Origin: a virus
Taxonomy: Duplodnaviria > Heunggongvirae > Uroviricota > Caudoviricetes
Virus record (IMG/VR): IMGVR_UViG_3300024270_000010
Length of the DNA stretch: 64,000 nt
Strand: one strand, 5' to 3'
This document shows, piece by piece, positions 51,979 through 53,795 of the stretch. The notes under the pieces are model-generated. The model had not been told where the DNA came from and did not search any database. It saw only the letters and a list, made by a program, of their open reading frames with translations. Each line of letters starts with the position of its first letter. Position 1 is the stretch's first letter. A program made the translations under genes and the position numbers.

Positions 51979-52007
51979 ATTATATCAATTTTTTTTATGT
52001 AAGTCAA
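51979..52007 (-). promoter_or_regulatory. sigmaA-type promoter of dnaE (identical to 44387-44415)
   Basis: TTGACT-N17-TATAAT. Confidence 0.85.
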
Positions 52008-53196
52008 TCTTTGGTGACAATCACCAATTTCTCTGCCGCACGAGTGGCCGCAGTGTATAACCAACGAGCATGATCAACGGGCTGGAAGGGGAACTTTTCT
52101 TCCAGAACCAAGACGTTATCCCATTCAGAACCCTGCGCTTTATGACAGGTAATGGCATATCCATAAGTAAATTCCTTTGGCACAACATCGCCAATACGAT
52201 TTTTTAGCTTATTCAGCTTATACTTATCACGCCATTCAAGCTCGCTTTCGCCGCCCTTCATAATGCGAGGGTCCATATTGATATGACCATAATTCTCACC
52301 TAAGTCAGATTCAAATACACCAGTAAGGATATTGATCTTACCCTTCTCATAAGCGTAAAACGGGACATTGATATGACTATACTTGGGATCATGTAATGTT
52401 CCAATAGTGCCATTTACCAATGGGTCGCCGTTAGTCAAATTACCCCAGTCCCAGTAATTCCGCAGACAAATAACTTTATCTCCTTCTTCTGGCTCAGGTC
52501 CAAAACCTCGTTGCTGACGCATGAAATCATTCATACTGTGCCGTTGTAGATTAGTCGCAACAAGAACCTGGTCTGCCCAATCAAGCATTCCGGTATTGAG
52601 CGCGCTGGCTGGATAAATTTGAACTTGGTCATTCTTTATATATTCCAAAGGCTTCTGGTCTCGAATATCCATAGTCAAACGGATAATACCAGATTCAGTA
52701 GCCTGTCTCATAATTTCATCAAGGAAGATATGAGGATGGTCAAGCAAATGATTATCCTCGTCTTTCTCAATGGGTGGCAACTGGAACGGGTCGCCAAGAC
52801 AAATTACATATACATTATGGGAGAATAATTTATCCATAATACTCTTGGGCGCCATGGACACCTCATCAACCACAACGACTGTATATTCCAAAGATTTCTT
52901 TGGGATTCTAGTAAATCCACCGCCTGGACGAGGCACGCTATCATAAAGCAGACGATGTAGAGTCATTGCGTTCTTATTGCCCTTCTTAGCTAGAACCTGG
53001 GCGGCCTTGCCTGTAAAAGTAGCAAAGCAAACTTTATTATGTTCTACATCTAATGCTTCAATGATAAATTTTACCAGAGTGCTCTTTCCTGTACCTGCCT
53101 TTAGGCGTAGCCAGCAATCACAGTGTACTTTTCATGTGCTCTGTGTCTGGCTACGGCAATTTTCAAACCTTCTTCTTGCTTTCTTGTAAGAATCAC
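52004..53196 (-). CDS. RecD/Dda-like SF1B helicase interrupted by 8 nt in Walker A (~394 aa if bypassed; may be a pseudogene)
   Basis: GTG start gives MILTRKQEEGL...IAGYA then TAA (53103-53101). The second frame gives AGTGKST, TFTGKAA, TLHRLLY, VVVDEVSM, LGDPFQLPP, YAITCHKAQGSEW and YTAATRA. Confidence 0.85.
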
Positions 53197-53720
53197 AGTT
53201 CTACTTCCTCTCTTTCTTCAATATTCAAATCTTCAATATTCCATAGATTATCATGTAGTTCTTTATGACAATTAGAACAAATTAAAATACATTTTTTACT
53301 TTCTTCTACTGCTTCTAATAAGTGAAAATGGTCATTGCTAATTGTAAAATCTTTTTTAGAGGGGTCAATGTGATGAAATTCTAATGCTTTTATACATCTA
53401 TCATATCCACATCTTATACATTTTCCACCACGAGATTCTTTTATTTTAGCTAAAAACATTCCTCTCGTTAATTGAACTCCATTTGGCATACAGTTATAAC
53501 AACAGGTTCTTTGATGAGCCGTAGAAGTTAAAGGATAAAATTCTTTTCCACAAATGGGACAAATTTTTGGTTTTCCTTTATAAGAAGTATCTTTTTGATT
53601 CTTTTCTTTATTGGCGTATTTTTCTCTGCGCGAAGCGTTTTGACATTCTATACTACAGTATTTTTTAGTAGAACGGATTGCCTCAAATTCATTTCCACAC
53701 ATAACACATTTATTTATCAT
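53193..53720 (-). CDS. Free-standing HNH endonuclease with zinc-binding N-terminal repeats (175 aa)
   Basis: CIRCG..ALEFHHIDP..CILICSNCHKELH; N-terminal CxxC...CSxxC repeats; AAAGGAG RBS; GTGA overlap with the helicase start. Confidence 0.88.
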   Translation of the reverse strand: MINKCVMCGNEFEAIRSTKKYCSIECQNASRREKYANKEKNQKDTSYKGKPKICPICGKEFYPLTSTAHQRTCCYNCMPNGVQLTRGMFLAKIKESRGGKCIRCGYDRCIKALEFHHIDPSKKDFTISNDHFHLLEAVEESKKCILICSNCHKELHDNLWNIEDLNIEEREEVEL

Positions 53721-53759
53721 ATATTTTCTCCTTTTTTGAAATATTTCTTTCATTATATT

Positions 53760-53795
53760 TCAAAAATAAGACAAGTAAATTCGTCAGCTTTGTCC
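53760..53795 (-). promoter_or_regulatory. Tripartite motif, copy 7, upstream of the HNH
   Basis: GGAC-N10-AAT-N13-TTTTGA on the minus strand. Confidence 0.55.

Follow-up and report, generated by a model that had tools for sequence, protein, structure and literature searches.

The window analysed here, a stretch of 64,000 nucleotides (nt) from the tailed-phage record IMGVR_UViG_3300024270_000010 (Caudoviricetes), contains on its minus strand a gut-phage helicase gene with 8 extra nt inside Walker A, the ATP-binding motif known also as the P-loop, and this insert starts with a stop codon. It is probable that the helicase is made as one polypeptide by means of a short programmed translational bypass (stop-hop) and that the bypass is carried by an HNH homing cassette. 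With slightly more reserve, we think it rather likely that this is the first natural family of programmed ribosomal hops of 5–8 nt, in which a self-contained cassette, composed of an HNH gene, a replacement N-terminal exon (N-exon) with a “motor” hairpin of 14–20 base pairs (bp), a stop and a near-cognate landing triplet, homes through the P-loops of Dda-like helicases and has reached hundreds of uncultured phages of the gut and the rumen. The evidence consists of the anatomy of the junction, a family of similar alleles, purifying selection on the helicase, a hairpin with covariation, linkage to the HNH gene and a recombination breakpoint that coincides with the insert.

The junction, on the minus strand, reads GCT GGC TAC GCC TAA AG GCA GGT ACA GGA AAG AGC, and deletion of 8 nt gives GYAGTGKST, as in uninterrupted relatives. 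The surplus is exactly 8 nt, because these relatives read ...I[SA]GY/AG[TSA]GK[ST]T, a motif that is unbroken in 25 of 29 relatives fetched by protein similarity. The gene is composed of the following parts.

53104..53196, minus strand: helicase N-exon of 31 codons, from GTG 53196 to GCC 53106-53104; N-terminal helix and strand beta-1, ending in ...YTVIAGYA.
53104..53106, minus strand: proposed take-off codon GCC (Ala), placed from the sequence.
53096..53103, minus strand: the 8 nt that would stay undecoded, with TAA at 53103-53101, spacer AG at 53100-53099 and landing triplet GCA at 53098-53096.
52004..53095, minus strand: helicase body in the +2 frame, with resume codon GGT at 53095-53093, Walker A G-T-G-K-S-T, all motifs of SF1B helicases and TGA at 52006-52004.

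The N-exon is collinear with the N-termini of uninterrupted relatives, and, going 3′ from the take-off codon, GCA is where an exact GCN triplet is first encountered. The body matches Pfam domains AAA_30 (E-value 2e-21) and UvrD_C_2 (E-value 2.6e-19) and belongs to a Dda/RecD-like SF1B helicase, in which Walker A, Walker B and Q motifs are intact and the motif columns are invariant in the 29-sequence alignment. The +2 frame is open only from 53131 and has in the window no ATG, GTG or TTG upstream of the Walker A Lys. Thus, three statements of the original prediction, made from the letters of this DNA alone, are borne out: a stop-containing insert of 8 nt interrupts Walker A, the helicase motifs downstream are intact, and re-initiation lacks a start codon.

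The insert was found again in other assemblies. A 127.8-kb contig from another sample (L243, JGI 3300022654) has the same 8 nt and shows a single internal difference from the window over 3,963 nt, a 1-nt deletion within the HNH gene; a 210.9-kb ENA scaffold diverged by 9% (L244) has an 8-nt insert of its own, GCC TAA AA GCA, at the same site. Since an independent assembly contains the identical junction, the insert is not an assembly error, and the original observation, supported also by the variant spacer, stands. The truncated open reading frame (ORF) of 320 amino acids (aa), in which form gene callers render the helicase of the window, was recorded in 37 blocks of the assembly collection.

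According to the proposed mechanism, the ribosome would translate the 31 codons of the N-exon and arrive at a state with peptidyl-tRNA-Ala on GCC in the P site and the slow-to-decode TAA in the A site. Codon–anticodon pairing would then break, the mRNA would slide by 8 nt, the tRNA would re-pair with GCA and decoding would resume at GGT, yielding the canonical GYAGTGKST P-loop with the predicted junction peptide ...YTVIAGYAGTGK. Both this hop and its efficiency are what we infer. A hairpin located just 5′ of the stop is its probable driver: the inner stem would refold behind the ribosome, outside its exit channel, and the outer stem, which has the Gly-Tyr-Ala codons still within the ribosome as its 3′ arm, would zip up and pull the mRNA forward. 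By analogy, the targets of the HNH endonuclease are presumably uninterrupted helicase alleles, cut in or close to their Walker A codons, and an allele with the insert would be immune.

The first sign of a family was given by two contigs with 6 extra nt and an in-frame stop at the same spot, GCC TAG GTA in L019 and GCC TAA GTA in L025. Scans with DNA patterns matched at least 80 viral contigs and at least 120 metagenome contigs, and among the matches listed at least 182 are true helicase junctions, representing 143 unique sequence contexts. Among the same matches the insert measures 5, 6, 7 or 8 nt and never 3, 4 or 9, so that the body occurs in all three frames; a mechanism valid for all of them can therefore be neither readthrough nor one particular frameshift. 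The Ala codon is directly followed by TAA, TGA or TAG in more than 75 viral contigs (by TAA in the window), while scans for inserts without a stop returned two helicase alleles only, each having the rare Arg codon CGG in its place. Judged by this pattern, a slow A-site codon after take-off is near-obligatory. The take-off codon is GCC or GCT in 96% of insert alleles, and the spacer between the stop and the landing triplet varies freely (AG, AA, AT, GA, CG, CC, TG; for instance, AA in L244, AT or AA in L036 and L040). Thus, the layout of take-off codon, stop and landing triplet, noticed initially in the window, recurs in about 180 alleles. When 80 relatives were picked by protein similarity only, 69 of them turned out to be uninterrupted, 3 contained an intein in the P-loop and 8 had a short insert. 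In this sample the Gly codon is GGC in 8/8 insert alleles versus 12/61 uninterrupted ones, and the Ala codon is GCY in 8/8 versus 21/61.

The triplet that immediately precedes the resume codon GGN is GCN in 51 of the 143 contexts and has one mismatch in the first two positions in 92. A double mismatch, expected by chance in 56%, was registered in 0/143, which means that position 1 or 2 is matched in 143/143. In 100 of the 143 contexts this triplet is strictly the best GCN-like match from the take-off codon onward, while neighbouring offsets reach this rank in 10 of 143 at most.

Involvement of the genetic code was considered as well. The RecJ-like gene of the window becomes continuous if TAG at codon 55 (56083-56081) is read as Gln; coverage of the 91-kb record by long ORFs rises from 70.7 to 95.2 kb once TAG is taken as sense, and in-frame TAG occupies conserved Gln positions in about 29 helicase alleles (e.g. 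L055, L065, L100, L239). Many phages of the insert family, including that of the window, are therefore predicted to read TAG as Gln. Amber recoding as the explanation of the insert is thereby ruled out: the phage recodes TAG, whereas its insert begins with TAA, a genuine stop, just as the original prediction had argued. In the approximately 29 TAG-recoded alleles the stop of the insert is always TAA or TGA, and TAG serves as this stop in only about 13 others, though the difference is not significant. A suppressor tRNA was rejected too: the window and its 91-kb record encode no tRNA, and no suppressor is present among the 28 tRNAs of a complete relative (G001, L255-L264). This relative, 196 kb long and having a 7-nt insert, contains all its tRNAs in one cluster at 16.9-38.3 kb; tRNA-Ala(UGC) of this cluster would pair well with the GUA landing triplet of G001 and weakly with its GCC take-off codon.

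The signal preceding the stop is an RNA structure.

53106..53155, minus strand: mRNA hairpin 5′ of the stop, with a 9-bp outer stem CGUAGCCAG/CUGGCUACG and a 5-bp inner stem CACAG/CUGUG.

The last pair of the outer stem takes the G of the take-off codon, and the 3′ arm holds the Gly and Tyr codons together with the start of the take-off codon. It is because this arm covers them that GGC UAY GCY is fixed at the nucleotide level. The hairpin of the window has a folding energy of −20 kcal/mol (z-score −2.6, 0/200 shuffles equally stable). For the family, 63 nt ending at the take-off codon were folded and compared with shuffles, which gave on average −21.8 kcal/mol and a z-score of −4.7 for insert alleles (n = 139) versus −7.5 kcal/mol and 0.06 for uninterrupted ones (n = 67). 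The conserved length is 14–20 bp. In 86 alleles the pairs of the outer stem are kept in about 70–100% of sequences, and in the inner stem the sequence varies while complementarity stays. The upstream Val (GUA) or Ile (AUA) codon covaries with synonymous UAC or UAU of Tyr (GC 49, AU 15, GU 12). Many pairs in these alleles are G·U, therefore the structure belongs to the sense-strand RNA. Counted on the named structure, 71.6% of cells are paired versus 23–46% in slid controls; one slid control (−2) scored similar covariation, so that the covariation score alone is not decisive and the argument for the hairpin is based on the percentage of paired cells and on z-scores of single sequences. A different element had been pointed out in the original prediction, namely a GCC-UAAA-GGC mini-hairpin. 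It is present, but has only 3 bp and is not conserved, and the conserved signal is the larger hairpin 5′ of the stop. Accordingly, the local fold of the junction is not significant either in the window (z-score −0.25, the fold having begun inside the 5′ arm of the hairpin) or in the family (median z-score −0.19), and folds of ±30 nt around the junctions of the insert family gave no signal.

Directly upstream of the helicase lies the second component of the cassette.

53193..53720, minus strand: HNH homing-endonuclease gene, 175 aa, ATG at 53720 preceded by an AGGAG ribosome-binding site; phrog_2255.

An alternative start, ATG 53753, gives a product of 186 aa; other assemblies call the 175-aa or a 171-aa form, and exact look-up of the 186-aa product returned none because callers use the 175-aa form. 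Identity of the gene was established by a match to PHROGs family phrog_2255 “HNH endonuclease” (E-value 4e-23), the motifs HH...N...H and CxxC being visible; the closest proteins of GenBank phages are also annotated as HNH endonucleases, while a Pfam search of this ORF gave no HNH match. The TGA of the HNH gene overlaps the GTG of the helicase out of frame (GTGA), and the previously noticed position of an HNH gene over the helicase start is thus confirmed. Full-length homologues, 68% identical, occupy the same place in L043-L046 and L049, and the ratio of nonsynonymous to synonymous divergence (dN/dS) of the HNH gene is about 0.02–0.04.

Co-occurrence of the insert with the nuclease, which had been proposed as a check, is confirmed with one correction. 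Among the insert alleles whose flank is long enough, 27 of 102 have a full HNH gene of this family immediately upstream, versus 0/26 uninterrupted ones, and relatives contain the full gene or its remnants; HNH is, however, missing from about 73% of insert alleles, and therefore the insert outlives the nuclease. In L019 and L025 only the last 15–25 or so HNH codons are left, and they are preceded by a duplicated helicase start: a second copy of its first 4–6 codons is found upstream of the remnant (L019:113-208, ATGGAGTTAAC...; L025:3824-3880, ATGGAACTTACA). From this arrangement it seems that the original start codon was the point behind which the cassette integrated, bringing a replacement N-exon. 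The single-nucleotide deletion of L243 (L243:891) frameshifts HNH, which is called there as 63 + 98 aa, and leaves the helicase, the hairpin and the insert untouched; the endonuclease gene seems to have been caught here in the course of decay. Taken with the remnants of L019 and L025, this frameshift means that the nuclease decays while the insert stays.

The cassette also recombines as a block. Identity between L044 and L046 is about 100% in the upstream part, which includes HNH and N-exon, and again beyond the gene, but only 85–95% from the insert to the gene end, and the same jump in divergence at the insert separates the window from L244. In the comparison of all allele pairs, discordant similarity was registered across the insert for 39 pairs, compared with 16 and 3 at the boundaries taken as controls. 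In the helicase tree, alleles with and without the insert are intermingled, and near-identical bodies (L113 versus L193 and L201) are joined to different units of N-exon and insert. From these sequence relations, HNH, the hairpin-bearing N-exon and the insert are seen to behave as one mobile unit with the insert as its 3′ boundary.

Selection on the helicase was gauged from substitutions. For the window and L244, both with an 8-nt insert, the comparison gave the following values.

N-exon, 31 codons: 1 nt and 0 aa changes, dN 0, dS 0.05.
Walker A segment without usable start codon, 44 codons: 22 nt and 3 aa changes, dN 0.046, dS 1.09.
Rest of the body, 320 codons: 70 nt and 0 aa changes, dN ~0, dS 0.45.

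Thus, downstream of the stop 92 nt changes are accompanied by just 3 aa changes. Five related insert alleles with full HNH have body dN/dS of 0.04–0.07 at dS of 0.25–0.6. L043 (8-nt insert) and L045 (7 nt) diverged evenly over HNH (dS 0.32), N-exon, body (dS 0.25) and flanks, with dN/dS of 0.037; their ancestor therefore already had the cassette, and the body has been under selection since. Among 115 complete unique insert alleles 82 have intact bodies, about 29 contain only in-frame TAG at conserved Gln, the rest comprise 2 alleles with an intron-like insertion of about 1.3 kb and 2 assembly oddities, and 0/115 are decayed. Early stops in 33 alleles could be taken for decay, but this was rejected, since they are mostly TAG at conserved Gln positions, in contexts such as GDPF-TAG-LPP and HRA-TAG-GS. 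Two expectations of the original prediction, purifying selection downstream of the stop and the lack of further disabling mutations in insert alleles, thus hold. The frame after the stop is, judging by these substitutions, translated, and from purifying selection on both sides of the gap combined with a body that has no start codon we infer that both ORFs are joined in one polypeptide.

Several points weigh against the proposed hop or lessen the force of the data. The large allele set was pattern-selected, as the pattern fixed GGCTAY and a T-R-R triplet, and the unbiased sample, taken by protein similarity, contains only 8 insert alleles. The 92 near-cognate landing triplets (ACY, GTN, TCN) are only near-cognate and at the same time are codons of small residues, which suits a model where they are decoded; among alleles with 5-nt inserts, about half have an earlier offset that scores as well as the landing triplet. 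RNAalifold, applied to the 86-sequence alignment, gave a trivial 3-bp structure and did not recover the hairpin, the inner stem of which is out of one common register across alleles. With a breakpoint at the insert, some divergence of the bodies may predate arrival of the cassette, and some of the dN/dS values may overstate selection after insertion. Finally, efficient bypassing known so far also needs a signal in the nascent peptide; conservation of the N-exon peptide is seen here, though helicase function and the hairpin each constrain this peptide too.

The alternative that survives best, although it is unlikely, is recoding at the stop, through a shift of +2 in the window, a shift of +1 where the insert has 7 nt and readthrough where it has 6, with subsequent decoding of the remaining insert, which adds 1–2 residues (GYA-K-A-GTGKST, junction ...GYAKAGTGK). 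The triplet before GGN always specifies a small residue (Ala, Thr, Val, Ser), as this alternative would have it; with two extra residues A-x-x-x-x-G-K-S still fits the Walker A consensus in our reading of the sequence, and forward slippage of whatever kind should become easier when a 5′ hairpin refolds (PMC5009743). However, three different events (+1, +2 and readthrough) are needed here for one conserved set of signals, the spacer nucleotides vary freely, the triplets available for +1 and +2 re-pairing (CCU, CUA) are non-cognate for tRNA-Ala, suppressor tRNA is lacking in G001 and in the record of the window, and a GCN-like triplet is located exactly at the P-site landing position.

Removal of the insert before translation, by RNA editing or splicing or in a subpopulation of genomes, also competes with the hop and is improbable. 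It gives no reason for a stop or rare codon after Ala or for a tRNA-Ala-cognate triplet before the resume codon, and the insert is consistently present in independent assemblies. We also know of no intron of 5–8 nt, which counts against removal at the RNA level.

A dead helicase, that is, a dispensable gene disabled by the HNH cassette in a series of recent invasions, is very improbable. In its favour, T4 dda is non-essential, and, as the breakpoints located at the insert demonstrate, a body can become attached to a cassette anew. Against this, no complete allele out of 115 is decayed although 73% are already without HNH, L043 and L045 co-diverged with the cassette at dN/dS of 0.037, and a dead gene would not keep a hairpin that is conserved and covaries, nor the obligatory stop, nor a landing triplet cognate to the tRNA. 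Still less probable is a two-piece helicase, in which the 31-aa peptide is released at TAA, the body is started separately and the pieces assemble. Split genes made by homing endonucleases are known, T4 gene 39/60 and Aeh1 nrdA being examples, but the window offers no ATG, GTG or TTG between the stop and the Walker A Lys, the triplets of the family at this place are GCN, ACY, GTN or TCN, and the first downstream Met is not conserved. A sequencing or assembly artefact, conceivable for a metagenome-assembled contig, has practically negligible probability in view of the identical junction of L243 from another sample, the variant spacer in the 9%-diverged L244 and about 180 alleles from many assemblies.

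Other interruptions were encountered in the same helicases. In three relatives, L022 (=L323), L297 and L343, the P-loop contains inteins of about 365 aa, inserted after G-x-G-K and ending with ...VTHN/T, four codons downstream of the short-insert site. Since inteins and short inserts both reside in the P-loop, its codons are a hot spot for several kinds of selfish elements. In addition to the Walker A insert, a second interruption, at GDPx/QLPP, was found after body codon 107 in L092, where it is about 1.26 kb long, and after codon 104 in L205. It begins with TAA, which in both is followed by …ggg..ggaataaa.taatctaa.tgc…, and the helicase of L092 continues beyond the 1.26 kb; the interruption looks like a group I intron, possibly having an endonuclease gene of its own. 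In L133 the ORF after the Walker A insert runs into unrelated ABC-ATPase-like sequence (…ILRCLNMIEKPTKGAIYFD), and this is probably a chimeric contig joined at shared P-loop codons.

Megablast and blastn comparison of the region with GenBank phages gave no match, and no cultured phage with the cassette was found, the closest helicases of cultured phages being 37% identical. In one of the cultured phages, Bacillus phage vB_BpuM-BpSp (KT895374.1, 49662-51078), a helicase match falls into two pieces with about 330 nt of surplus, annotated as two hypothetical proteins; this phage may have an interrupted Dda-like helicase. Our literature search returned no paper describing such inserts in helicases, and they are not mentioned in the preprint of Manning & Atkins devoted to MobA and gene 60 (bioRxiv 10.1101/2022.08.31.505936).

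The present understanding of efficient bypassing rests on T4 gene 60 with its direct homologues, plus the “byp” elements of yeast mitochondria. If the proposed hop is true, the helicase alleles constitute a natural series with four hop lengths, three stops, a rare-codon variant, matched and near-matched landings and a covarying hairpin, which makes the rules of take-off, sliding and landing testable; a hop length changing from 5 to 8 nt among close relatives would then be a natural mutational series for bypassing driven by mRNA refolding. There is also a consequence for annotation: gene callers truncate such helicases to 320 aa, and “frameshifts” in phage metagenomes should not be dismissed as errors or pseudogenes.

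The closest known system is the bypass of T4 gene 60 with the mobile element of the HNH endonuclease MobA, which were reportedly described by Huang et al. in 1988 and Bonocora et al. in 2011. As in gene 60, the take-off codon of the helicase is followed by a stop or, rarely, by a hungry codon, the landing triplet is synonymous or matched, a stem-loop lies 5′ of or around the take-off codon, and the insert is placed within a highly conserved motif. As in the MobA element, an HNH gene is situated upstream, its 3′ end overlaps the start of a target copy that serves as replacement, and loss of the endonuclease with retention of the bypass is frequent. Loss of HNH with the bypass kept, substitution of the stop by a hungry codon, a replacement target copy and inhibition of MobA cleavage by the insert have all been described for MobA/gene 60 (bioRxiv 10.1101/2022.08.31.505936), and a “motor” role was proposed for the 5′ stem-loop of T4 gene 60 (PMC5009743). 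In contrast to gene 60, the gap measures 5–8 nt instead of 50 (20 nt in the shortest reported clade), the target is the P-loop of an SF1B Dda/RecD-like helicase instead of a topoisomerase, and the tRNA is Ala instead of Gly. There is neither a Shine-Dalgarno sequence in the coding gap nor a take-off stem-loop 3′ of the codon, the helicase hairpin being wholly 5′, and the helicase gene is not split in two, HNH standing upstream of the whole gene. No relationship of this HNH to MobA was detected. The helicase cassette is therefore an analogue and not a member of the MobA/gene 60 element family.

Another counterpart is provided by synthetic stop-hops of E. coli (Weiss et al. 1987; O'Connor et al. 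1989), which were engineered and had low efficiency (PMC5009743). There, too, peptidyl-tRNA leaves the codon 5′ of a stop and re-pairs a few nt 3′ independently of frame, and 6-nt helicase members (GCC TAA GCA) reproduce exactly this design. Unlike it, the helicase design is natural, conserved and equipped with a dedicated hairpin. According to the 2016 review on recoding, shorter counterparts of the bypass have “long been presumed”, and no natural in-frame stop-hop was known (PMC5009743). Mitochondria of Magnusiomyces capitatus contain byps of 27–55 nt spread over many genes (Lang et al. 2014, via PMC5009743). Helicase inserts resemble them as short inserts bypassed at translation, with an unused or slow A-site codon and take-off and landing triplets often matched at 2/3 positions; byps, however, are longer, mitochondrial, scattered over many genes and have no link to a homing endonuclease. 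Finally, phage genes with an intein or a group I intron in their P-loop codons likewise contain a selfish element that occupies the same motif without killing the gene, but such elements are hundreds of nt long and catalyse their own excision from the protein or RNA. The hop would thus give homing endonucleases a third route, besides inteins and introns, into the best conserved codons of a gene that is not destroyed by their presence.

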